A model generated the notes under the pieces. That model was not told where the DNA came from. It saw only the letters and a program-made list of their open reading frames with translations, and ran no database searches. From positions 13,764,001 to 13,828,000 of the forward strand of contig OZ360237.1 in the NCBI GenBank assembly GCA_977017645.1: a stretch of DNA of 64,000 nucleotides, written 5' to 3'. Shown piece after piece: positions 25,700-64,000 of this stretch (the first letter of the stretch is position 1; every line of letters starts with the position of its first letter). A program made the position numbers and the translations under genes. The stretch is from Torpedo marmorata. Lineage: Eukaryota.

Positions 25700-27685
25700 C
25701 AAGATTGATATCCATCTTTTTGTTGTTTCCTATATCTTGTTTTTTTGTTTGTGTGTGGATACACACTGTGGCTACGGCTTTACCTTCGTTTTCACTGGCT
25801 TTTGCACTACCACTGAACTTTTTCGCGTGCTGCAGAGCTAAATCACTGGCGTGGCATATCTTCACAGTTCCAGCTAAGGTAAGCTCTGTCTCTCGTAGCA
25901 ACCTCTCTCTCACTTTCTTATCAATAATCCCGAACACAATTTGATCACGGATCATTGAATCTTGCAGCGATCCAAAATTGCATGTTCTTGCTTTTAATTT
26001 CAAGTCTGTTAAAAAAGTATCAAAGCTCTCTCCCTGCAGCTGCGTGCGCGAGTGAAACATGTACCTCTCGAACGTTTCATTTTTCTTTGGTGAACAGTGT
26101 TCATCAAACATCTTGATAACCGTTAAAGGATTTTTAGTTGAGAAATTGGGGAATCAATTAATATCTCCTAGACAAGATGGATTAGAGTTGTTAATTACTA
26201 ATGGAAATGTTAATAAATTTATATCACAAATGTATAAACTACTTCAGAGAAAGATGCCTAAAGTAGGATTACATAAATCTAGATTAAATTGGGAGTCAGA
26301 TTTAAATATTAGTATAGATGAACAACATTGGAAAGAATTATGTAAATTGAGTATGAATAAAATTATTAATGTTAGATATAGATTAGTACAATATAATTTT
26401 TTTCATCAATTATATATAACACCTAAAAAATTAAAGAAATTTAATTCGGCATTATCAGATATGTGTTTTAGGTGTAAAGATGAAATAGGTTCTTTTGTAC
26501 ACTGTACATGGTCATGTTTAAAAATTCAAAATTTTTGGTCTAAAGTTAAGGATTTTTTAGATAGAATTTTTAATATTACGATTCCAATGGATCCTATGGT
26601 ATTTTTATTTGGAGATATTAAAAAAATTAGTATTAGAAATAGATTGAATATGTATCAAATAGAATTTTTACGAATTGTGTTAGCGATTTCAATAAAATGT
26701 ATCGCTATTACTTGGAAATCAGATTTAGATTTGAATTTAGATAGATTACATGCAGAATTACGTTCTTGTATACCATTGGAAAAAATTACATATAATTTAC
26801 GAGATAAATATCATTTCTTTTTGAAAATTTGGAGCCCATATATGAGAATTATGGGTATGAATTAATTCTCTAAAAGTTGGTACCGCTGACAAATGTAACC
26901 TCCAATATATAAGTAGAGTTAGCTTGTAATTGTTTTCTCCTCATTCTAACTCTTAAATCTTTAATATTCAATTCTATTCTTTTTTTTTCTTCTTTTTAAC
27001 TAATACCTCTTTTTTTTTTTCTCTTTCCTTTTTTTTTATTAGAATAGTGTGGGAGGGTTGGGGAGGGGAGGGTGGGAGGGGGGGAGGTAATATATCACAT
27101 GTATTTTGAATGATATACTATTTTTGATTTATGTATTTTGTGATTTTAAAAGTTAAATAAAATTATAAAAAAAAACAAAAAAAAAAAAACATCTTGATAA
27201 CCTTGTCGAACTTGCCATGGTCTTCTGCCTCGGCAAAAATAAATGTATTGAAAACCTCTAGTGCTTGAGGTCCCGCCACGGTAAGTAGCAGTGCAATCTT
27301 CCGTGCATCAGGTTTGCTATCGAGTCCAATGGCTTGCAGGTACAGCATGAATCTTTGTTTGAACAACTTCCACTCGTGGTCGATATTTCCAGTCCAATTT
27401 ACAGCATCAGGAGCCTTTACACTCTCCATATCTCTGCTGCTATCGACTGACCCCACTCCTGGTACCATGTGATGTTTCTTTTTATTGTAATAAAGAAACT
27501 TGGGTTCTTTTAAAAACAACTATACTTTATTAGCTATAGAGCTATAGAACTCATGACCGTGTGGAGGCATCCATCTTCAATCCAACTGAGCTGCAACAAA
27601 CTAGTCTCCGACTCTCTCTCGTGATCAGGAGGATCACTTGCACTCTATCATTACAATCACAGCAACAAATATTGTGCTCATAACA
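25700..27685 (-). mobile_element. Truncated Gypsy element: 5' LTR 27468-27685, tRNA-Leu PBS, gag interrupted by an L1
   Basis: TG...CA LTR; PBS TGGTACCAGGAGTGGGG; gag WKLFKQRF...ERYMFHSRTQ...IRDQIVFGI continuous across the L1. Confidence 0.88.
26122..27186 (+). mobile_element. 5'-truncated L1 (family B) inserted in the Gypsy gag
   Basis: TSD aaacatcttgataacc at 26106-26121 and 27187-27202; open ORF2 C-terminus; poly(A). Confidence 0.92.
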
Positions 27686-28202
27686 TCATTCTTATTTGGA
27701 GTAAATCACAGACTTTTTAATCTTGAAACAACTAATATTTTTAACATTATTTGCTTTGGGGTATTTATTTTTAGTGTTTGTTCATCCAAGCACAAGATAA
27801 TCCATCGATCTCATCTTTAATAATCTCTTTACTCCTTCTGTACGTTCATTTTGATGGGCTGAAGGGCCTGTTTCTGTGCTGCATCACTTAATAAGCTTTC
27901 ACAATTTACTTTTTAAGTTGATTCTCAGACAGTCTTCATTCAGAATCCTGTCTTTCATTCCTAGTTGGTTTTTTATTAAATATTGTTCTTTGCATAAAAC
28001 TTTTATTTTGGTACTACATCATCTAACTTGGATCTAACTGAGCTATTTCTGGCAATGAGTAAGGAGCACAAATATAATTTCTATTTCATTCCTCTGGTTG
28101 TGGGTATGAGGTAAGAAAGGATTAGATTGTTGTGGAGTAGGTTTACGTAGGCCGTCATTAACATCGTGGGCTGAAGGGCCTGTACTGTGCTGTATTGTCC
28201 AA

Positions 28203-41496: not shown

Positions 41497-42314
41497 AAAG
41501 TAAATCACGAAAATCTGTAGACACCGTGGTTGAAGTGGATTCCACCACCAGACACATTTTTCCTTCTTCTCCCCTCTCGGCCTTCCGCAGGGACCACTCC
41601 CTCCGCGATTCCCCTGTGCCCGCAGGAGGGGCAACACCTGCGCCCTCACCTCCCCCCTCACCACGGTCCGGGGCCCCAAACAGGCCTTTCAAGTGAAGCT
41701 ACACTTCACTTGTACATCCAGAGAACTTATTTACTGCATCCGGTGCTCCCTTTGAGGCATTCTCTACATCGGAGAGACCGGTCGTAGATTGGGAGATCGC
41801 TTCGCTGAGCACCTCCTCTCCGTCCGCAACAACAGCGACCTCTCAGTAGCCAGCCATTTCAATTCTGAGTCACACTCCCACACTCACATGTCTGTCCATG
41901 GCCTTGTGTACTATCCCACCCAGACCACCTGCAAATTGGAGGAACAACATCTCATTTTCCGTCTGGGCACTCTCTAGCCAGATGGCATTAACGTTGACTT
42001 TTCTACTTTCCACTAAACCTGCTTGCCTTTTCCTTCCCCTCCCCCCTTACCTGTCCTTCCAGTTTTTTTCAACCCACCCAGCCATCCCTCCTCCCCCTCT
42101 TTGCTGCTGTCCCCTCCCTCCTTTCTCCACCTATCATCTCCTGCCTTTGCCACCCCCCCCCTTCCCCCCCTCACTCTTTTGTTCGGACGCCTGCCGGCAT
42201 TTTCTCATACTTTGATGAAGGGCTCAAGCCCGAAACGTCGGTTATGTATTTCTACCTTTGCTACATAAAAGACACTGTTTGACCTGCTGAGTTTCTCCAG
42301 CATCTGTTTTTTTT
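41497..42314 (+). mobile_element. 5'-truncated Penelope-like element (GIY-YIG remnant) with short inverted terminal piece at its 5' end
   Basis: YIGETGRRLGDRFAEH...VASHFN...EEQHLIFRLGTL; flanking duplication acttatggcatagg. Confidence 0.9.
42206..42246 (+). ncRNA. Minimal hammerhead ribozyme motif in Penelope terminus (second copy 58804-58844 on -)
   Basis: UUGAUGA-A-GGGC(UCAA)GCCC-GAAAC-GUC with imperfect stem I; Penelope elements are known to carry minimal hammerheads. Confidence 0.7.
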
Positions 42315-42727
42315 ACTTATGGCATAGGGATTGCTTAAGGTGGAATGTGAGTTTAGGGGGGCAGTTTGAAAACCACTGCTCTACATGGTCTTCCAGAAAG
42401 GATTTGAACTTTGGAAGGATGAAGAGGAAAAGGAAATTAATAGGAGAACCCAGGGAGTACTGAGAAACAGGGACCTTGGTTATTAGTTCAAGGATCCCCA
42501 AAGTTGGCAGTAGAGATAGAAAAGGTAGTGAAGAAGGCATACGGGATGCAAGCCTTCATTACCCAGGACATAGAATATAAAGCAGGATGGGTACGGTCAA
42601 CTTTATGAAGCACTAACATGGCCAAAGCTGGAGTGCTGTGTAGAGTTCTGTTGATCACACTACTGTAAGGATTCAATTGGGCTGGAGAGAGTGCATGGGA
42701 TGGAGCATCTTACTTGCAAGAGACTGA

Positions 42728-43415: not shown

Positions 43416-44094
43416 TTGGCTGGGTTTACCTTGGTACAGAGGAGGTGGAGCAGGTTATTGAGGTATACATATAAATCAGAACAATATAGAGAGAGCAAAT
43501 GGTAGGGATCCTTACACCACCATGTCAAAACTGAAGATATATGTTTAGAAAAAGGAGGAAGTGATTTAGAAGAGATCTGAGGAAGATTTCTTTTCCACCT
43601 GGAGGATAGCTGGAATGTAAATACATGTCTGAGAGGCTGGTGGAAAGCAGGGACTCCCAAAACACAAAGTATTTCGATTGCCTTGGCATAAAAAGCCATA
43701 GACCAAGTGCTGGTAAATGAGATGAGTGTAGATGGGCAATTGGTGGTTGGCATGGACACTACTTAACCAACCCATATCTTTTCTGAGAGTCCTTAACCCT
43801 TCTTGACAACTTACCTCATACCTATCTGTGTACAATCCACAAATTTATCAATTATATATTTGGTTCCTTCATCCAAACTATTTATAATAATTGTAAAAAG
43901 TTGAGCCCCAACACTGATCACATGTTACAACTTCAACCAGAAAAAGCCCATTTTATGCACTCTTCTATTAGCCAGCCAAAGTTCCATCCATGCCAGTATG
44001 TTGTCTCCTAACCAACACCATGAGCTTTTACTATTCACAATCATCTTTGAAGCAGCACTGTAAGAGCCGTAGGCTCGTTAACTTACCATTGTTG

Positions 44095-44371
44095 CGGCGC
44101 TCCGATGTCTCGTCGGGCCTTGGAGCGCTCGCGTAGTTCGGTGGGCCGTCCTCGGAGCGCTCCTAGGCCACGTCGGGCCATTGAGCGCTCGCGTTGTTCG
44201 CTGGGCCGTCCTCGGAGCGCTCCGAGGCCACGTCGGGCCTTGGAGCGCTTGCGTTGTTCTGTGGGCCGTCGTCGGCCCGTTCTTTGATATGCGCATGCGC
44301 GGGAGTGCCGACGGGCGCATGCGCAGTATGGAGTGACGTCATTGTGCGCGTGGGAGGCTGGGAGTTGTAGT
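44095..44371 (+). promoter_or_regulatory. LTR U3 CpG-rich promoter: 3 x 60-bp repeats, two NRF1-type sites, CRE, ZNF143/THAP11-type motif (duplicated in the 3' LTR)
   Basis: GCGCATGCGC at 44291-44300 and 44315-44324; TGACGTCA 44334-44341; ACTACAACTCCCAGC on the reverse strand at 44357-44371. Confidence 0.7.
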
Positions 44372-45195
44372 ATGCGCGGGGTAGGATGCGCAGAGCCATT
44401 AGAGAGAGATAGAGAAGGAAAGGAAAAGATGTATGGAGGGTGAGTCTGGTCTCCACATCTTTATTGACCGTTTTATATCGTTTTATAATGTTTTTATAAC
44501 TTCAACATCATCTACAGTGTTTCATATCGTTTTGGAATTGTTTAAGGAATAATTTAAAGGAACTCATCATACATCGTTTACAATAACTGTTTATATTAAA
44601 GTCATTGAAGATTACTGCAAGTCATGTGTGAAAATAAAGGTTTTGAACATATTGGACTTTGTTAGTAAATTAATTAAAACGCGTCAAAAGCAAGGACCAC
44701 ACTTAGCCTCCAGGTGACTATTGGTGGAGCGAAGTCACCGTTACTTATAGTCAATAAAGGGCTGGCTGTTTGGAACAGAAGTTTGAAAGAAAGAAGATAG
44801 AAAAAACTCTCTGTGCTTTGGACTGATATAAATTGGTGGCCATTTTGGAGTTGCCTCGAGTTGGGGGCAGTTTGTAATCCACATCCATCTGCCATGAATA
44901 ACAGCCAGAGAGGGATTTAAAGCTTCAAATCTTATAATAAAGTGTCCTATAAATACGTTGGAGAAACTATTTTTGGAAAATCAGTGATATTAGTGACGGA
45001 TGTTGTGGTTGAAACTCGTTTAAGGATTGCAGCACATTACAGTCATTAGAAGTGGTAGGCATAAGTCTGTGGACTCCTTCTGTGTATCTTTAGCAAGTAA
45101 GAACACAGATTGGAATTGCTGCCGCTGGTCCATTGGGGACTGTTGTTTGACTAGTGTTGTGTATGCTTGAAGGAAAGAGGAACAAGACGAGTAAA

Positions 45196-48100
45196 ATGGC
45201 CGCAGCAGCCACTGATACAGCAGCTACTGATTTATCAGCAGCTGACGCAGCAACCGCTGATGTTGCTGTTGAGGACCAACGTATTGAAGACATGAAGGTT
45301 GCGGATATTAAAGAAGAATTGAAGCGACTGAAAAAGGACATAAGTGGAAATAAAAAGGTTCTTATTGAAAGATTGAAGCAGGCAAAGGATGAAGAGGCAG
45401 CTTTATTAGTGGAACAAGAAGATAACTTGGAAATGGCTGAAATTGTATCAACAAATGATGAACAATTTGAATTGGATAAAGAGGTAAGTATGAAGACAAC
45501 ATATGAACTGCAGGACGAAATACAAGCAAGTGACAGTGTCTCAAATGCTGAAAGCAGGAGAAGCAAAAGAAGTTCTGGTTCGAGCTCCAGAGTTTCTCGT
45601 ATTTCAAGTTCTACATCGTCACGTACAAAGATTGAAGTTGACTTGGCCGCTCTTCTTGCACAACAAAAAACGCTTAAGGATAAATTTATATTAGAACAAG
45701 AAGAGGAACAACTAAGACAAAAGGAGGAGCAGCTAAGACAAAATGAGGAGCAGCTAAAGGAGCAGCTAAGACAAAATGAGGAGCAGCTAAAGGAGCAGCT
45801 AAGACAAAATGAGAAGAAGCTAAAGGAGCAGCTAAGACAAGAGGAGGAGCAGCTAAAGGAGCAGCTAAGACAAAAGGAGGAGCAGCTAAGACAAAATGAG
45901 AAGCAGCTAAAGGAGCAGCTAAGACAAAAGGAGGAGCAGCTAAGACGAGAGAAGGAGCAGCTAAGGCAGAGAAAAGAACTGCAGGAGCTGGAAGCAAACA
46001 TTGCTATTGCCAAGGCAAAAAAGAAAGCAACAGAAGGCTCAATGGTATCTGGTGCTAGCAGTAAATCATCTAAATTATCTGATAATAAAAGGTCATATTT
46101 AAAAAAGGAGTCACAGGAAAAGAAACCAACCAAAAGGATAGATATTTTAGAACCAAGGATACAAAACTTACATATACAAGGACAAACCTTTCAAGAGCAT
46201 ATTGGTATCGAGTCACATGTACCAATGATAACATCTGAAAGCAAAGCTGCGGATTGGGTTCGGTCGAACGAAGTAGCTTCTTTGTTATGTGAGTCAAGCA
46301 TCAGAAATATGGAAGAAACTATACCAGTAAGGTATCCAGATACATTGCATGCAACAAGAAACAGTGAACAGAGCAATGTATTGTCATCCAAGGAAAGACA
46401 AAATGAAATTGCTGCATCATTGTTTCAGTTACAGTCTCTCTCTTCTTTACCCAAGAAAGAGATACAAACTTTTGATGGTGATCCACTTCAATATCAATCG
46501 TTTATGAGATCTTTCAAACGCAATATTGAAGATAAATGCCAAGATCGAGATGAATGTCTTTATTATTTGGAAATGTTCACAAAGGGACATCCAAAAGAAC
46601 TGGTTAAAAGTTGTAACCAAATGTCTTCAGGAAGAGGATTAGACAAAGCTAAGGCTTTATTGGAACAATATTTTGGCAACAAACATCGAATTGCTTTAGC
46701 TTATATGGATAAAGCTCTTAAATGGACATCAATAAAACAAAATGATGTAAAGGCTTTGCAAGAATATACTTTGTTTTTAAGAGGATGTTGTAATGCTATG
46801 GAAGAAATCGATGGTATTCGTGAGCTTGATGTGCATAGTAATATGCGAATCATTTTAGAAAAATTACCTTACAAGGTATGGGATAGATGGAGAAATTTGG
46901 CTTGTGATTTACAAGTAAATTATGGTCGAAGAATTACTTTAAAGGATTTGGTAAATTTTCTTGAACGACAAGTGTATGTTGAAACAGATCCACTATATGG
47001 AAATACCAGAGATAATTCAATGAGCAAAGATGTAAGGAAGTCTAATTCACAGTCTAGTCCGAAAGTGAAAAGGAGTACTTTTGCTACTAATGTGCAAGTT
47101 ATAAGTAAAGAAAAGGACAAAATAAATAAGGAAAAGGAAAGTTTGCCTAATGAAAAGAGTTGTTTGTTCTGTAAAGGTGGACATGCTTTGGAAATGTGTT
47201 TACAATTGGAAAGGAAGGAACATAAAGAAAGGATCGCTTTCTTAAAGGAAAATGGAATATGTTTTAGCTGTCTGTGTAAAGGGCACATCAGTAAAAACTG
47301 CGAGAAGCAAATTAATTGTGACATATGCAATTTTAAACATCCTAGAATTTTGCATGTCCATAACAGAAACAAGGAATTGGAAAAGGAGCAAACAGAAACA
47401 AAGGAAACAACAGAAAATAATGTTATAACCTCGGTTCAGACAAGTGGTCTTACTGGGGCCGGGGTGAATAACTGCAAACTTTCAATAGTGCCTGTACAAG
47501 TTAAGGCCAAGAAAGGGGATGCAATAGTAAAAACATATGCATTTCTAGACCCAGGTAGCACTGCATCTTTTTGCACGGAAGGACTAATGAATAAACTTAA
47601 TATTCAAGGAAGAAAATCAAGAATTATGTTAAAAACCATGGGACAAGAAAAGGTTGTTGAAACTAACATTGTTTCAGGCTTAGAGGTTGCTGGATTGGAT
47701 GACAAAAAATTTTGTGATCTTCCAAGTGTATATACTCAGAAGACTATGCCTGTGAACGAAGGAAATATTCCTCATCAAAGTGATATCCATCATTTAGCTT
47801 ATCTGTGGAAGGTTTATTTACCTGAAATTAATTCTGAGATAGAAATGCTGATTGGTTCAGATGTGCCAAAGGTTTTGGTACCAAAAGAAGTAATAGAAAG
47901 TAAAAGGAATGGACCTTACGCTATTAGAACCATACTTGGTTGGGCAATCAATGGACCAATGGAAAGAAATAATGATATTGCTCAGGCACAGGTAGCGATA
48001 AATGTTAATAAAATTTCAATTGAGAAAGTTGAAGAGTTAAGAGAAGAGCAAAAAACCGTGAATAAGAAAATCACTTATGAAGAAAAGAAAACAGATCAAT

Positions 48101-48942
48101 GTGAAAATAAATCAATGGTATTTAAAACAACATTGAAGGAATTAATTTCGTCAGAAATGGATGAAAGTGAAGTGTTAGAGGATGAAAGTGAAGTATTAAA
48201 AGATGTTGCAAATAATACTATTGATCATTCATGTGTAATTGAATCAGATACAGGAATAAAACAAGTGACTGAAAACAAATCTGAATGTAGATTTTGTAGT
48301 TCAGAGATTACAACAGACAAAGCTAATGAAGAAATATTACAATGTGATGTAAAACTGGAAAACACAGAAAATTGTGCTGATGGAATAAAGAATAATGTGA
48401 ATGATAATTCAATGCAATTGAATCCAGAGAACAAAATGTTGAAAGGGGAATTGGAAATATTAGATAATCAAGAAAACAGTAAACAGAAAGATTTAATTGT
48501 AAGTAAAACTCGCAAAGTCAGAAAGCAGAAGAAAAGAATAACTGCTGAAGAAATGAATACAGTTATCGAAGAAAGAGATTCAGCATTATCAAAATGTAAA
48601 AGGTTGGAGGAAGAGATTAATGTTTTAAAAGAGAACAAGTTATTGGTTAATAACACAAAACAGTTGACTTTAAAAACCAATCAAGAATGTAAATTGAATG
48701 TTCAACAATTAACAATGCAGAAAGAATGTGATATTGCATTGCAGAAATGTAACAAACAAGATGAAGAAATAAAAAAATTTCAAGTTTGTCGCGACAGGAT
48801 TGACAATAGAAATATCAATGTACTATATGATATTTTGACTTCAGATCAAATTATTAATTTCTCGGAAGGAGCTGAGACTGAATTGAAAGTTGCAAAATTG
48901 GATTTAGAATTGCAGGAAAGAGCCATAGAAACCAGTGGTTAA
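45196..48942 (+). CDS. Intact ~1248-aa chimeric Gag-protease: SAP domain, coiled-coil repeats, BEL Gag, zinc knuckles, aspartic protease, host-like coiled-coil tail
   Basis: Uninterrupted ORF; likely start aaaATGg at 45196; CLFCKGGHALEMC / CFSCLCKGHISKNC / CDICNFKHPRILH; no RT YxDD or integrase DDE seen. Confidence 0.88.
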   Translation: MAAAATDTAATDLSAADAATADVAVEDQRIEDMKVADIKEELKRLKKDISGNKKVLIERLKQAKDEEAALLVEQEDNLEMAEIVSTNDEQFELDKEVSMKTTYELQDEIQASDSVSNAESRRSKRSSGSSSRVSRISSSTSSRTKIEVDLAALLAQQKTLKDKFILEQEEEQLRQKEEQLRQNEEQLKEQLRQNEEQLKEQLRQNEKKLKEQLRQEEEQLKEQLRQKEEQLRQNEKQLKEQLRQKEEQLRREKEQLRQRKELQELEANIAIAKAKKKATEGSMVSGASSKSSKLSDNKRSYLKKESQEKKPTKRIDILEPRIQNLHIQGQTFQEHIGIESHVPMITSESKAADWVRSNEVASLLCESSIRNMEETIPVRYPDTLHATRNSEQSNVLSSKERQNEIAASLFQLQSLSSLPKKEIQTFDGDPLQYQSFMRSFKRNIEDKCQDRDECLYYLEMFTKGHPKELVKSCNQMSSGRGLDKAKALLEQYFGNKHRIALAYMDKALKWTSIKQNDVKALQEYTLFLRGCCNAMEEIDGIRELDVHSNMRIILEKLPYKVWDRWRNLACDLQVNYGRRITLKDLVNFLERQVYVETDPLYGNTRDNSMSKDVRKSNSQSSPKVKRSTFATNVQVISKEKDKINKEKESLPNEKSCLFCKGGHALEMCLQLERKEHKERIAFLKENGICFSCLCKGHISKNCEKQINCDICNFKHPRILHVHNRNKELEKEQTETKETTENNVITSVQTSGLTGAGVNNCKLSIVPVQVKAKKGDAIVKTYAFLDPGSTASFCTEGLMNKLNIQGRKSRIMLKTMGQEKVVETNIVSGLEVAGLDDKKFCDLPSVYTQKTMPVNEGNIPHQSDIHHLAYLWKVYLPEINSEIEMLIGSDVPKVLVPKEVIESKRNGPYAIRTILGWAINGPMERNNDIAQAQVAINVNKISIEKVEELREEQKTVNKKITYEEKKTDQCENKSMVFKTTLKELISSEMDESEVLEDESEVLKDVANNTIDHSCVIESDTGIKQVTENKSECRFCSSEITTDKANEEILQCDVKLENTENCADGIKNNVNDNSMQLNPENKMLKGELEILDNQENSKQKDLIVSKTRKVRKQKKRITAEEMNTVIEERDSALSKCKRLEEEINVLKENKLLVNNTKQLTLKTNQECKLNVQQLTMQKECDIALQKCNKQDEEIKKFQVCRDRIDNRNINVLYDILTSDQIINFSEGAETELKVAKLDLELQERAIETSG

Positions 48943-50426
48943 ACAGACCTGTTTAAAATCGAAAGAATCAGATAAATATTCAAATTCTAATTCTAAGAGT
49001 TTAAATTCTTCACATGAGAAGTGGAATACTGAAGAAAGGAATAAAGTGAAACGACGTGCTGAAGAAGTGCCTTGTGTTAAATTCAAAAGAAAAACTGTAT
49101 CTATTTTATCTGAGGAGGATTTGAGGTTTACTGGTTAACGTTTTGACTCGGATTGTGAAGATGGAAGAACTTTAAAGAGACATTGTGATTGTTATGGATG
49201 GTTCAACTTCAAGAAATTCCTGGTTACTTGGAAAAGATTATTGAGACTTTTCAAGACAAAGAGGACTTGTGCGTCAAGTGCGAATTAAAGCTAAGACTGG
49301 TTTTCTAAACAGACCTATTAACCAGGTCTGTCTTTTGTTGGAGACAGAGGAACTTTGATAAATAGAAACTGACTTTATTTGTTATTGTATATTTCACAGG
49401 TTACAGACTTTTGTTGAATCAGAGTTATGGTAAACTCTAGATTTATGAAGAAGGAAGAAAGAAGATTTGTATTGTTTTGAATGTTATGGTTATTATTATT
49501 TATAGTGTAATTATTATTCAAGACATTACGTCTAATTATAATAATTAGGGGCCGGTGTAAGAGCCGTAGGCTCGTTAACTTACCATTGTTGCGGCGCTCC
49601 GATGTCTCGTCGGGCCTTGGAGCGCTCGCGTAGTTCGGTGGGCCGTCCTCGGAGCGCTCCTAGGCCACGTCGGGCCATTGAGCGCTCGCGTTGTTCGCTG
49701 GGCCGTCCTCGGAGCGCTCCGAGGCCACGTCGGGCCTTGGAGCGCTTGCGTTGTTCTGTGGGCCGTCGTCGGCCCGTTCTTTGATATGCGCATGCGCGGG
49801 AGTGCCGACGGGCGCATGCGCAGTATGGAGTGACGTCATTGTGCGCGTGGGAGGCTGGGAGTTGTAGTATGCGCGGGGTAGGATGCGCAGAGCCATTAGA
49901 GAGAGATAGAGAAGGAAAGGAAAAGATGTATGGAGGGTGAGTCTGGTCTCCACATCTTTATTGACCGTTTTATATCGTTTTATAATGTTTTTATAACTTC
50001 AACATCATCTACAGTGTTTCATATCGTTTTGGAATTGTTTAAGGAATAATTTAAAGGAACTCATCATACATCGTTTACAATAACTGTTTATATTAAAGTC
50101 ATTGAAGATTACTGCAAGTCATGTGTGAAAATAAAGGTTTTGAACATATTGGACTTTGTTAGTAAATTAATTAAAACGCGTCAAAAGCAAGGACCACACT
50201 TAGCCTCCAGGTGACTATTGGTGGAGCGAAGTCACCGTTACTTATACTTATCAAATGCTTTCTGGAAATCTTATTGTAGTACATCAACTGGTTCCATTTA
50301 TCCACAGAATTTACTTCAAAGTAGTACAACAAAGAAAATCAAGCACAATTTCCCTTTCATTAAACTCTGTTTAATCTTGCTGAATACCTTGAATTTTTCT
50401 AGTACCTTGCTGTAACTTTGCTAATT

Positions 50427-58288: not shown

Positions 58289-58644
58289 CATTCCCATCAT
58301 TACTACACAGGCCTCCCACATACATGCTTTCAGTAACAAGCACTGCTGACTGTAATTCACTTTGGGATATCCCAGCAATATCACAATGCTATACAAATGA
58401 CTGTTATTTCTTGTTGAGTTTATATCAGTAAACGGTATTTTTGCTGGAATCCCATCCACTCATTTCATACTCCAATTTCATCAAACCTCAACCGTCTGTA
58501 TTACATTTTGTAGTATGTTCTGCATTTGAATGGATTTGCCCAGGTACTTCGTTCCTTTTGTGATTAATGTGCCCATTTCTGCTATCTCTTTCTGAAACCT
58601 TTGATTCCAGGATTCAACTCCATCCCATTACTGGGGCAGTACTG

Positions 58645-61600
58645 TGTGGTTGAACGCGGTACTGCGGGTATGTCCGGCCATGTCTGGACATGTCCTAAAG
58701 TAAAACACGAAAATCTGCAGACACCGTGGTTGAAGTAAAAAACACAAATCCTGGAGAACTCAGCAGGTCAAACAGTGTCTTTTATGTAGCAAAGGTAGAA
58801 ATACATAACCGACGTTTCGGGCTTGAGCCCTTCATCAAAGTATGAGAAAATGCCGGCAGGCGTCCGAACAAAGGAGTGAGGGGGGGAAGTGGGGGGGTGT
58901 GGCAAAGGCAGGAGATGATAGGTGGAGAAAGGAGGGAGGGGACAGCAGCAAAGAGGGGGAGGAGGGATGGCTGGGTAGGTGGGAAAAAACAGGAAGGACA
59001 GGTGAGGGGGGAGGGGAAGGAAACGACAAGCAGGTTTAGTGGAAAGCAGAAAAGTCAATGTTAATGCCATCTGGCTGGAGAGTGCCCAGATGGAAAATGA
59101 GATGTTGTTCCTCCAATTTGCGGGTAGTCTGGGTGGGATAGTACATAAGGCCATGGACAGACATGTGAGTGTGGGAGTGTGACTCGGAATTGAAATGGTT
59201 GGCTACTGGGAGGTCGCTGTTGTTGCGGACGGAGAGGAGGTGCTCAGCAAAGCGATCTCCCAATCTACGACCAGTCTCTCCGATGAAGGGAAAGCCACAA
59301 AGGCAGCACTGGATGCAGTAAATAACTTCTCTGGATGTACAAGTGAACATGTCCTCACTGGCTCACCGGGCTAACCTGTAGCCCCTCCCCATTACATCCC
59401 CTAATAAAGGCTGAGAGCCATAGTCTCCTCCCCTATACCTGCCTTGGAAGTGAGCCAGCAGCATGTTGAGGCATGCTCGAACTTTCTGATCAACAAAGCC
59501 TTTGATCACTTTCTTCATGTCTGCAAGTGGTCATTGATCGCGCTACAATTTATTGATCAGAATTTTAAGTGCCATGGAGAAGGCAATTAGACTGGAGAAG
59601 CTGGACACCAACCCCAAGGAACCAGAGGCCTCCGTAAAGTTCGATATGTGCCTACATTGCTTGGCCTATCCGAGGCGCCACGATATCACAACCGACCCGG
59701 ATAAGTACGATCTGCTCTTCGCAGCGGTGGGCCACAGAGCGTACCAAATTATCCGAGACTGCACCGAATATGAAGAGGCAATGGCTCTACTTCGACAACA
59801 ATACAGAGCCCCGGCGAACGCCATATACGCACGCTTCCAGCTGGGCTCCCGACACCAGGGTCCTGGTGAGTCAGTAGACGAGTTCGTGAGGGCCATGCGG
59901 GAGCTGGGATGAGCTTGCGGGTACCGGGACGTGAGCGCGGTGCTCTACCAAGAGGAGCATCCGCGATGGGCTCGTCGCGGGCTTCCGCTCCCAACACATA
60001 AGGGAGCGACTCCTGGAGGAAGGAGATCGGTCCCTCCAGGTAGTGGTGCAGATGGCCCGAGCGATGGAGACGGCTCAAAAGAACGTGGAGGCCTACTCAG
60101 AGGGCACGCGGCCACCAGGTGGGGAGAACGGGCGGCGCCATCTTGGAACTCGGGGCCCCTGACTGCAGCGGCCACAGCCGACCACGCGAGGTGCAACTAC
60201 TGCGGCCAAAGTAGACACCCGTGGAAGTACTGTCCGGCCCGTAGCGCAACCTGCTCAAACTGCCAGAGGAAGGGACATTATGCCAGAGTATGTCGCTCCA
60301 AGCCCCACTCCAGCAGTGCCGCATGCGGACCGCGACTCTCCTCGCCATCTTGGACCCACCCACTTCCGCCGTCATTTCCGGCTGCCGAAAATCGAGCTTC
60401 CAGAATAGGGGCGCAACAAAGAGGACAGACGTCACTTCCTGCTTCTTCTCCGGACTCAACCACGTACGATCCATGGGTGCGGCCATCTTCACGACCTCCC
60501 GGGCGGCCATCTTGGCGGCAGCCGCCCCGAAACAGCAGCAGCGACTCGGATGGTGAGCTGACGCTGGCGTCCATCGTGCTGGACCAAGGGAGACCACACC
60601 AGCTGGAGCGATCGATGATGGACGTTGAGGTAAACGGTCACTCCACTGGCTGCCTGTTCGACACGGGAAGCACTGAGAGCTTCATACACCCGGGCACTGC
60701 CGAGCGTTATTCCTCGACTGTGTCCCCAGCCAAAGGAAAGGTAGCACTAGCCTCCAAATCCCTCTCTGTGGAAATCCGTGGAAGCTGCACCGTGACCCTA
60801 ACTGTGGGGGGCACCAATTATAAGAATTTTAAACTGCTGGTAATGCCCCACCTCTGCGCACCCGTCATATTGGGGCTAGATTTCCAGTGCCAGTTTAAAG
60901 GGGTGCTGATGAACTCTGATGGGCCCCACCCCCCACTCACCGTCACTAATAACCAGTACTGGGAGGCCCGGCCCATTCCCCAGAGGAGGCCCAATCACAC
61001 GATTGAAAGCCGGGCTGGGTACCTGACCTGCGGACTAACCACCCTCCGGGTCCCTCCGCCCCCGCTGTTCCAAAACCTCACCCCGGACTGCAAAACCGAT
61101 TGCTATTAAGAGCAGGCGATACAGCCCCGGGGACAGAAAATTCATTAAAACGGAGGTGGAGCGGCTGCGGGAGGAGGGCATTATATAGCCAAGCAATAGT
61201 CCCTGGAGGGCGCAAGTAGTGGTGGTGAAGAGTGGGGAGAAACATCGTATGGTCATTGATTACAGTCAGACCATCAACCAGTTCACCTTACTGGACGCCT
61301 ACCCTTTGCCCTGCATATCGGAGATGGTAAATGAGATCGCCAAGTACAGGGATTTTTCGACCATAAACCTAAAATCGGCGTACCACCAAATCCCGATTCA
61401 CCCAAAAGACCAGCTGTACACGGCATTTGAGGCCAACGGCCGACTCTACCATTTCCTGTGGGTCCCATTCGGTCTCACGAATGGGGTGTCAGTGTTCCAA
61501 AGGGAAATGGACCGCATGGTGGATGACAATAAGCTGAAGGCTACGTTTCCATACTTGGACAATGTCACCATCTGCAGCCATGACCAAAAGGAGCACAACG

Positions 61601-63841
61601 AGAACCTGCAGAGGTTTCTGGCCACCGCAAAGACACTCAACCTCACATATAATGAGAAAAAGTGTGTCCTCAGCACCAAAAGGCTGGCAATCCTGGGGTA
61701 CGTGGTGGAGCATGGGGCTATCGCCCCCAACCCTGAGCGTATGCGCCCCCTACTGGAATTACCCTTGCCACAGAACACCAAGCCTTTAAAAAGGTGCCTG
61801 GGGCTTTTCTTCTATTATGCCCAGTGGATCCCTAACTATGCGGACAAGGCCCAACCTCTAGTGAGAACCATGACTTTTCCCCCATCGGCGGAGGCCCGTA
61901 AGGCTTTCCAGGGCATCAGAGGCGAGATTGCCAAGGCGGGAATGCACGCCATTGATGAATCCATCTCTTTCCAAGTGGAAAGTGATGCCTCTGCCTTCGC
62001 CCTGGCCGCCACGCTGAACCAAGCAGGCAGGCTAGTCGCATTTTTTTCCCGTACCCTCCAAGGCCCCGAACGCAGGCACTCCGCCATCGAGAAGGAGGAA
62101 CAGGCTATAGTGGAGGCAGTGCATCACTGGAGGGACTACTTGGCCAGCAGACCATTCACCCTGCTGACGGACTAGAGAGCCGTTGCGTTCATGTTTAACA
62201 ATAAACAGCGGGGTAAGATCAAAAATGACAAAATCATGAGGTGGAGAATTGAGCTGTCCACCTACAATTATGAAATATGGTACTGGCCGGGTAAGCTCAA
62301 TGAGCCACCCGATGCCCTGTCCAGGGGAACCTGCGTCAGGGTGCAAGTTGATCGCCTCCAGGCCCTCCACGATAGCCTCTGCCATCCTGGGGTCACGAGG
62401 CTCTACCATTTTGTGAGAGCCCGGAACCTTCCCTACTCAGTGGAGGAAGTAAGGGAGCTGACTCACAATTGCCAGGTCTGTGCCGAATGCAAGCCTCAAT
62501 TTTACAGACCGGATAGAGCTCAACTGATCAAAGCCACTCACCCTTTTGAACATCTCAGCATTGACTTCAAGGGGCCCCTCCCGTCCACGAATCGGAACTC
62601 CTACTTCCTGAACATCGTGGACGAGTACTCACGTTTCCCATTCGCCATCCCCTGCCCGGATATGACTACATCCACGGTCATTAAAGCACTCCGCTCAGTA
62701 TTCACTCTGTTTGGATAACCTAGTTACGTTCATAGTGACCGGGGATCTGCTTTCATGAGTGAGGAGTTGCGGCAATACTTTGTTTCAAGGGGCATAGCTA
62801 CGAGCAGAACCACCAGCTACAACCCCCACGGGAACGGGCAGGTGGAAAGGGAGAATGGTACGATCTGGAGGGCAGTCCTTTTGGCCCTCAAGTCGAAAGG
62901 GATGCCCGTATCCCAGTGGCAAGAGGTCCTCCCAGATGCGCTGCATGCTACCAGGTCCCTACTCTGCACGGCCACCAATGCTACACCCCACGAAAAATTG
63001 TTCTCCTTCCCGAGGAGATCGGCGTCGGGAACCACGCTGCCAGTCTGGCTGACGACCCCAGGGCCGCTGCTTCTTCGGAAGCACGTTAGGACTCATAAGG
63101 CGGACCCACTGGTCGAGGAAGTGCATCTCCTGCATGCCAACCCCCAGTATGCACTGGTAAGGTACCCGGACGGACGGGACGATACAGTGTCCATCCGGGA
63201 TCTGGCGCAAGCGGGGGATCTGGCGCAAGCGGGGGCCCCGGCACGGGAGGTGCACCCGATATCCCCAGTCGGCCCCAGGAATCACCCTGACAAATGAAAT
63301 GGGGATCCCACCCCCAAGACGACCCCCCGATTGTTCCCCTTTAAGTGTGTGTCCCTCCCCACTCTTACCAATAAATTCACCACCCCCTTCGGACCCAGGA
63401 CACACAGAAACAGTTCAGCCATCCGACAGCCAGCAGGTCGAACACGACACCGCTCAGCTTGATCCGAAGATACAGCCAGTACTTCGGAGATCTCAGCGCG
63501 AAAGAAAACCACCGGAGCGGCTGAACCTATGAGACTATGAACTGTATGGACATTGCCCTGCGTCACTCCGCCGGACTTTATTTAAAAAAAGAGTGAATGT
63601 GGTGGAACGCGGTACTGCGGGCATGTCCGGACATGTCTGGACATGACCTCACTGGCTCACCGGGCTAACCTGTAGCCCCTCCCCATTACATCCCCTAATA
63701 AAGGCTGAGAGCCATAGTCTCATCCCCTATACCTGCCTTGGAAGTGAGCCAGCAGCATGTAGAGGCATGCTCGAACTTTCTGATTAATAAAGCCTTTGAT
63801 CACTTTGTTCGTGTCTGTAAGTGGTCATTGATCGTGCTACA
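58645..63841 (+). mobile_element. Full-length degenerate Gypsy LTR retrotransposon (5' LTR 58645-59547 interrupted by Penelope; 3' LTR 63598-63841)
   Basis: gag with two CCHC knuckles, FDTGS protease, RT (PFGL, YLDN), RNaseH (SDAS), integrase (HPG, DFKGP, GQVER); several stops and frameshifts; PPT aaaaaaagagtgaa; flanks tactg/cgctg are at best an imperfect TSD. Confidence 0.94.
58697..59346 (-). mobile_element. Penelope-like element inserted in the Gypsy 5' LTR
   Basis: GIY-YIG ORF 59036-59350; duplication acatgtcct at 58688-58696 and 59347-59355. Confidence 0.92.
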
Positions 63842-64000
63842 CGCTGTCAGCCATTTCAACCCATTTCTGGATTCACCTGTCCAAGTCCAACCATGTGTCT
63901 TTCCACTTTAAATGTCCCCTGAATGCATACCTTTTTTCGTCACTCTTTTACTTCACTATTTGTCACTTGGCATATGTTCCTTCACCTGTTTTAATATCTT

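Follow-up and report, generated by a model that had tools for sequence, protein, structure and literature searches.

A Ty3/Gypsy family of Torpedo marmorata whose PBS position pairs, in a fixed register, with its own LTR

A 64,000-nucleotide stretch of the Torpedo marmorata genome (contig OZ360237.1, forward-strand positions 13,764,001 to 13,828,000; hereafter the window) contains a decayed member of an abundant Ty3/Gypsy family in which the PBS position pairs with the element's own LTR in a fixed register. By analogy with Tf1, we consider it likely that the lineage to which this family belongs is self-primed: its RNA would fold, be cut at the 3′ terminus of the LTR segment that faces the PBS (the arm) and be extended from its own cut end, with no tRNA.

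The element spans approximately 58645–63841 and has the TG...CA LTRs, PPT and gag-PR-RT-RH-IN order of Ty3/Gypsy; its best PDB match is the Ty3 RT. Its true 5′ LTR start, overlooked in the first-pass annotation, is at 58645, and the LTR is interrupted by a later 650-bp insertion (58697–59346, no strand assigned) that is flanked by a 9-bp duplication, is 94% identical to window positions 41706–42318 and is likely the end of a LINE, to judge from a nearby RT frame. The first part of the LTR (58645–58696, plus strand) opens with TG and matches the start of the 3′ LTR and the starts of sister copies; the second (59347–59547, plus strand) ends in CA and is 95% identical to the 3′ LTR over 204 nt. 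A candidate left TSD, TACTG (58640–58644, plus strand), agrees with the right copy, CGCTG (63842–63846), at 3 of 5 positions, the mismatches being of the CpG-decay type, and 5-bp TSDs were found in 14 of 17 relatives as printed. The broken gag-pol (59574–63297, plus strand), interrupted by stops and frameshifts, comprises gag with a CCHC-like knuckle, protease, RT with a YLDN motif, RNase H and integrase, with no chromodomain. Downstream lie a degenerate polypurine tract (63584–63597, plus strand), which ends in AA before TG with the same geometry as in relatives, and the 3′ LTR (63598–63841, plus strand).

The first-pass annotation had reported that no TGG follows the 5′ LTR and that the sequence found there is complementary to both LTRs; both observations held. 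The LTR ends ...gctaca at 59547, a one-base spacer follows (a at 59548, plus strand), and the next 14 nt, the PBS position (59549–59562, plus strand; tttattgatcagaa), are by sequence comparison the reverse complement of the arm at 59484–59497 (plus strand; ttctgatcaacaaa) and of its copy in the 3′ LTR at 63778–63791 (ttctgattaataaa), with one different mismatch in each. The arm, which is the predicted 3′ segment of the self-primer, ends at the AATAAA position, mutated to AACAAA in this 5′ copy, and is followed by GCC; a 50-nt loop with a predicted internal stem (59498–59547, plus strand) connects it to the LTR end. Further upstream, 81 nt before the arm, lies AATAAAGG (59403–59410, plus strand), which may be a TATA-like box or a second hexamer resembling a poly(A) signal, and a sister family has the same motif 70 nt before its arm. 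The complementarity in the window copy is not due to chance (duplex score 11, compared with a maximum of 9 among 300 shuffles). The folding energy of the whole 59460–59600 region was not exceptional (z = −0.89); the signal of pairing is fixed register and covariation, not duplex stability.

Two other elements in the window bear on the same annotation. A Gypsy at 27451, to which that annotation assigned a conventional tRNA-Leu PBS, does carry a TGG-type site (TGGTACCAGGAG after CA on the minus strand); it is truncated (27200–27720, minus strand), retains this PBS and the start of gag, and provides a contrast within the window. The element at 44059–50247 has identical direct repeats of 691 bp and a frame of 1263 aa with a SAP domain and a weak match to an aspartyl protease, and is probably the other tRNA-independent case to which the annotation alluded: part of its left repeat is the reverse complement of the bases that follow that repeat (GTCAATAAAG).

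Pairing was retained across the family, which has approximately 2,000 LTR–PBS junctions in the genome; a DNA search returned 1230 family candidates, and one exact LTR–PBS pattern returned 1710 junctions. The duplex was perfect (14/14) in 25 of the 30 nearest copies and in 17 of 30 selected by pattern. The C/T site that is mismatched in the window's 3′ LTR proved to be a family-wide compensatory polymorphism at arm position 8, with 1273 copies having C in the arm and G in the PBS, 67 having C without G, and 682 having another base in the arm; among the first 100 of this last class as listed, a hand count gave 87 T/A, 10 T/G, and one each of T/C, G/G and G/C. The 682-copy class is one evolutionary event within a large subfamily, not many. 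At arm position 5, by comparison, none of 20 copies mutated in the arm had a matching change in the PBS; ordinary decay therefore does not yield matched pairs, and these 20 copies gave no sign of primer-templated PBS repair at this position, for which the single G/C double at position 8 is insufficient evidence. One further copy (L024, G000:C68:48545178-48545524) has as its left end an inverted 81-nt segment that extends from the end of the LTR through the arm and joins U3 at a stretch resembling the bases upstream of the arm, with no 3′ LTR in reach; this structure likely arose from a template switch.

Covariation between families showed a requirement for the arm and the PBS to pair. Contigs from metagenomes and genomes were scanned and supplied 80 and 8 external loci, 55 of which (of 88) were screened. 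Many of the external loci lacked a junction through truncation or insertion, and near-duplicates were removed before 23 junctions were scored; L074, L070 (complement visible by eye) and L139 (decayed complement) are not counted among them, nor is L075. The related families, some twenty in number, were 39–73% identical in RT where measured. Arms and PBSs differ between families yet pair, as the first-pass annotation had proposed examining: the duplex of each junction with its own PBS scored 10–19 (mean 14.3), compared with a mean of 6.2 and a maximum of 14 for 506 swapped pairs, and the own PBS was strictly the best partner in 21 of 23. Register positions 1–11 were Watson–Crick in 22–23 of the 23, and positions 4–11 were occupied by 2–4 different pair types, although 9 of the 23 junctions were located by a CA-N-TTT pattern that builds in the register, the junction of L076 was placed by eye and several of the rows are closely related. 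Where the junction was defined by an LTR pair, the duplex began one base past CA in 13 of 14 cases. Arms lay 23–77 nt from the LTR end, and most ended in AAA followed by RCC. A PBS starting with TGG was found at none of the 23 junctions. The sister family in the same genome, with 73% RT identity, has a different 15-bp arm/PBS pair, within which copy L203 carries three matched changes; a further matched change separates L090 from L092. Near-identical copies of the sister family occur on many unplaced contigs (C405, C415, C917, C923, C975, C1009, C1135, C1275, C1747, C194 and others), which suggests that it lies within an extensive repeat unit, for example an array or a segmental duplication.

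As a tRNA-type control we used a Gmr1-like family with a TGG PBS from the same genome, in which arm–PBS scores were 5–6 in 8 of 8 copies. This very abundant, young Gypsy family (L206–L218; 41,875 first-look candidates) has integrase before RT, LTRs of about 865 bp that are up to 100% identical, and a TGGGGGCTC PBS 2–3 nt after the LTR; the labels Gmr1-like and CsRn1-like are provisional and based on domain order and motifs. Matches to SH3_Tf2-1 in the T. marmorata genome, considered as a candidate chromovirus-like family, proved to belong to this family and were rejected as such.

Named homologs of the lineage, among 120 listed, came from cartilaginous fish, cnidarians, a sea cucumber, two nematode genera and a damselfly, all known as proteins without a readable LTR; the closest were from sharks and rays. 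Animal-type Gypsy elements also appeared within bacterial MAG records (L141–L148), where they are probably eukaryotic contamination, and relatives of the lineage were not found in scans of viral contigs.

How the duplex might be used can be outlined from Tf1. Genomic RNA would fold the arm onto the PBS and would be cut at the arm's 3′ end, between AAA and RCC in most families, with the element's own RNase H as the probable cutter. The new 3′ OH would serve as the primer for synthesis across the spacer and U5. With the template ending at the cut, strand transfer would need an R downstream of it; such a short R (10–30 nt) would be supplied by a poly(A) signal at the end of the arm, which may explain why arm and hexamer overlap. 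Where the 5′ LTR has a poly(A) signal, this duplex would hide it as well. Among 16 predicted folds, every one had the central duplex and most had loop stems, and a duplex 3′ of the PBS with LTR sequence, the 'pretzel' of Tf1, was not evident in these 16, which had only stems inside the loop. A scan of 16 LTRs found no TATA at a distance of about 30 nt upstream of the arm, and in the two families from the T. marmorata genome a TATA-like motif occurs 70–81 nt upstream; the RNA may therefore have its 5′ end elsewhere than at the arm.

Covariation and register would be accounted for equally well if the same arm sequence acted in trans, as a short LTR-derived RNA or a second packaged genome, without an intramolecular fold and cut. 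Mismatched combinations at position 8 (C/A in about 4% of C-arm copies; T/G in 10 of 100) exceed the background of about 1% at position 5, indicating that arm and PBS are sometimes inherited apart, as a trans primer would allow. However, ordinary template switching explains such copies, and in a 30-copy sample five C/A copies carry the PBS plus leader of the other subfamily and look like LTR/leader recombinants. The arm, moreover, is always 23–77 nt upstream in cis, with stems closing the loop, which favours folding in cis; we therefore regard priming in trans as unlikely.

The first-pass annotation had offered self-priming, a hairpin hiding AATAAA in the 5′ LTR alone, or both. If the duplex served only to mask the 5′ poly(A) signal, in the manner of a retroviral poly(A) hairpin, and another primer were used, one would expect what is partly seen: AATAAA or ATTAAA ends 12 of 23 arms, AAA ends 21 of 23, and the partner strand is present solely behind the 5′ LTR. 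Yet A(A/T)TAAA is found in only those 12 arms, the 11 others (GTTAAA, GGTAAA, GACAAAT, GATGAA and others) are all still paired, and in L063 the AATAAA sits outside the arm. Masking has no need of a one-base register at the LTR end, and another primer site was not found in the first 25 nt past the LTR at any of the 23 junctions. A fixed one-base offset from CA would be required of any primer end if it is to define the integrase end. Covariation, register and phylogeny together lend good support to self-priming in a Gypsy that has no chromodomain. Because of this fixed register and the dispensability of the hexamer in 11 of 23 arms, self-priming is preferred and masking as the sole function is quite improbable; hiding of AATAAA may be a secondary role in the 12 arms that hold the hexamer. 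The remaining candidate, an unusual host RNA resembling the LTR by chance, has a precedent in the half-tRNA priming described in available parts of work on Copia (PMC6317226, PMC10886601) but is very improbable here, as the PBS letters vary from family to family, tracking each family's own LTR, and no Rfam match was found at 58600–59800.

Self-priming invites comparison with the Tf1/sushi chromoviruses, and the tests run do not place the lineage among them. The absence of an evident chromodomain, noted by the first-pass annotation for the window copy, extended to all 120 listed homologs and to 20 relatives rescanned at E 0.05, in which SH3_Tf2-1 was likewise not found; a chromodomain was common in the sushi-type comparison set. 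A Chromo search of the T. marmorata genome gave 15 matches, apparently scattered host genes, and no chromovirus-like family, and a DUF4939 search gave no match, with the control likewise silent. In three quick trees, from which L140 and L148 were excluded for want of a usable frame, the self-complementary elements formed one side of a long branch (SH-aLRT 100), and the chromodomain-bearing rows grouped apart together with one unlabelled row (SH-aLRT 99). RT identity between the lineage and the chromodomain-bearing rows was 26–32%. An AU test rejected a single clade with nine vertebrate and fungal chromodomain rows (p = 0.021, on a quick tree with a long branch); a position as sister to all chromoviruses, absent from the best tree, was not rejected (p = 0.25). 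The Tf1/sushi membership that would have made the finding a familiar one was thus not borne out: by these tests, in trees whose chromodomain-bearing rows came from frogs, fish, fungi and algae and did not include Tf1 and sushi-ichi themselves, the lineage is not a Tf1/sushi member, and it is distinct, without a chromodomain, and separate in these trees from the chromodomain-bearing rows.

A broader reading, which we put forward tentatively, is that this is a large, old lineage of animal Gypsy elements in which self-priming may have arisen independently of Tf1/sushi and with a different design; the primer would be cut directly behind the poly(A) signal and might be longer than the paired arm, so that one duplex would set the primer end, the length of R for strand transfer and the masking of the 5′ poly(A) signal. 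If true, widespread self-priming in chromodomain-less animal Gypsy elements would bear on a question raised in the available text of PMC3601003, namely whether priming by a hairpin is an ancestral trait or a convergent one. Self-primed elements would, if the reading is right, also be expected to evade tRNA-fragment control and to go unnoticed by annotation tools that rely on the PBS. For mapping of RNA ends, the compensatory variants that occur naturally offer ready, specific predictions.

Self-priming has been placed in Tf1/sushi, Tcn1 and Copia TAR elements, according to the portions available of the relevant literature (PMC3601003, PMC6317226, PMC6238403, PMC8556966, PMC6934838, PMC3587641, PMC4600332, PMC3286476, bioRxiv 10.1101/2022.12.06.519325, PMC5006619, PMC8220671, PMC10886601, PMC13524379, PMC11042837); descriptions exist for the Tf1/sushi chromoviruses, and for one Copia lineage of plants there is a prediction. 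The self-primed chromoviruses named in the text available include Tf1 and Tf2 of S. pombe, Tj1, Tosmo1-3 and the Tf1/sushi group including Tcn1 (PMC4600332, PMC6317226, bioRxiv 10.1101/2022.12.06.519325), and the Tf1 primer consists of the first bases of the mRNA (PMC4600332, bioRxiv 10.1101/2022.12.06.519325). Like these elements, as far as their available descriptions go, the present lineage has Ty3/Gypsy domain order, a PBS complementary to its own 5′ LTR with no tRNA site, and a duplex next to the LTR end. Unlike them, it lacks a chromodomain or Tf2-type SH3, its RT is on a separate branch, and about half of its families have an arm that overlaps the poly(A)-signal position; the three-duplex structure of Tf1 was not seen whole in its folds, and the arm as RNA 5′ end is only putative.

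Dictyostelium Skipper also lacks TGG after its LTR but, in the excerpted account, is a chromovirus that has a polypyrimidine tract and lacks a complementary region in its LTR (PMC5006619). Animal non-chromovirus Gypsy elements, a description that also fits the lineage, include Mag, CsRN1, Gmr1, Cigr-1 and MolGy/PolGy in the text available (PMC6238403, PMC8556966, PMC8220671, PMC3286476). Mag-lineage entries in a mosquito table resemble it in short LTRs, a length of 4–4.5 kb and a 5-bp TSD but, unlike it, use tRNA-Leu, -Ser or -Arg (PMC3286476, as tabulated), and surveys of mollusc and annelid Gypsy elements leave the PBS unmentioned in their main text (PMC6238403, PMC8556966). Compared with these clades by their descriptions, the lineage was matched to none by name; one of these animal Gypsy schemes probably has a name for it already. 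Closest in argument is the plant Copia TAR lineage (Houba, Osr-1), of a different superfamily and kingdom, for which self-priming outside Tf1/sushi was predicted from LTR–PBS complementarity (PMC6317226, in the part available). The same source gives the definition of a putative self-primer by Neumann et al., at least 10 bp starting 0–5 bp after the LTR; in the present lineage the complementarity is 10–19 bp and starts one base after the LTR. In the literature searched, much of it in partial text, with subscription papers, GyDB and Repbase notes and some supplements outside the search, no account of an animal Gypsy that is self-primed and not a chromovirus was found. The mechanism itself is known, and what is new, as far as we found, is its likely presence in a non-chromovirus animal Gypsy.
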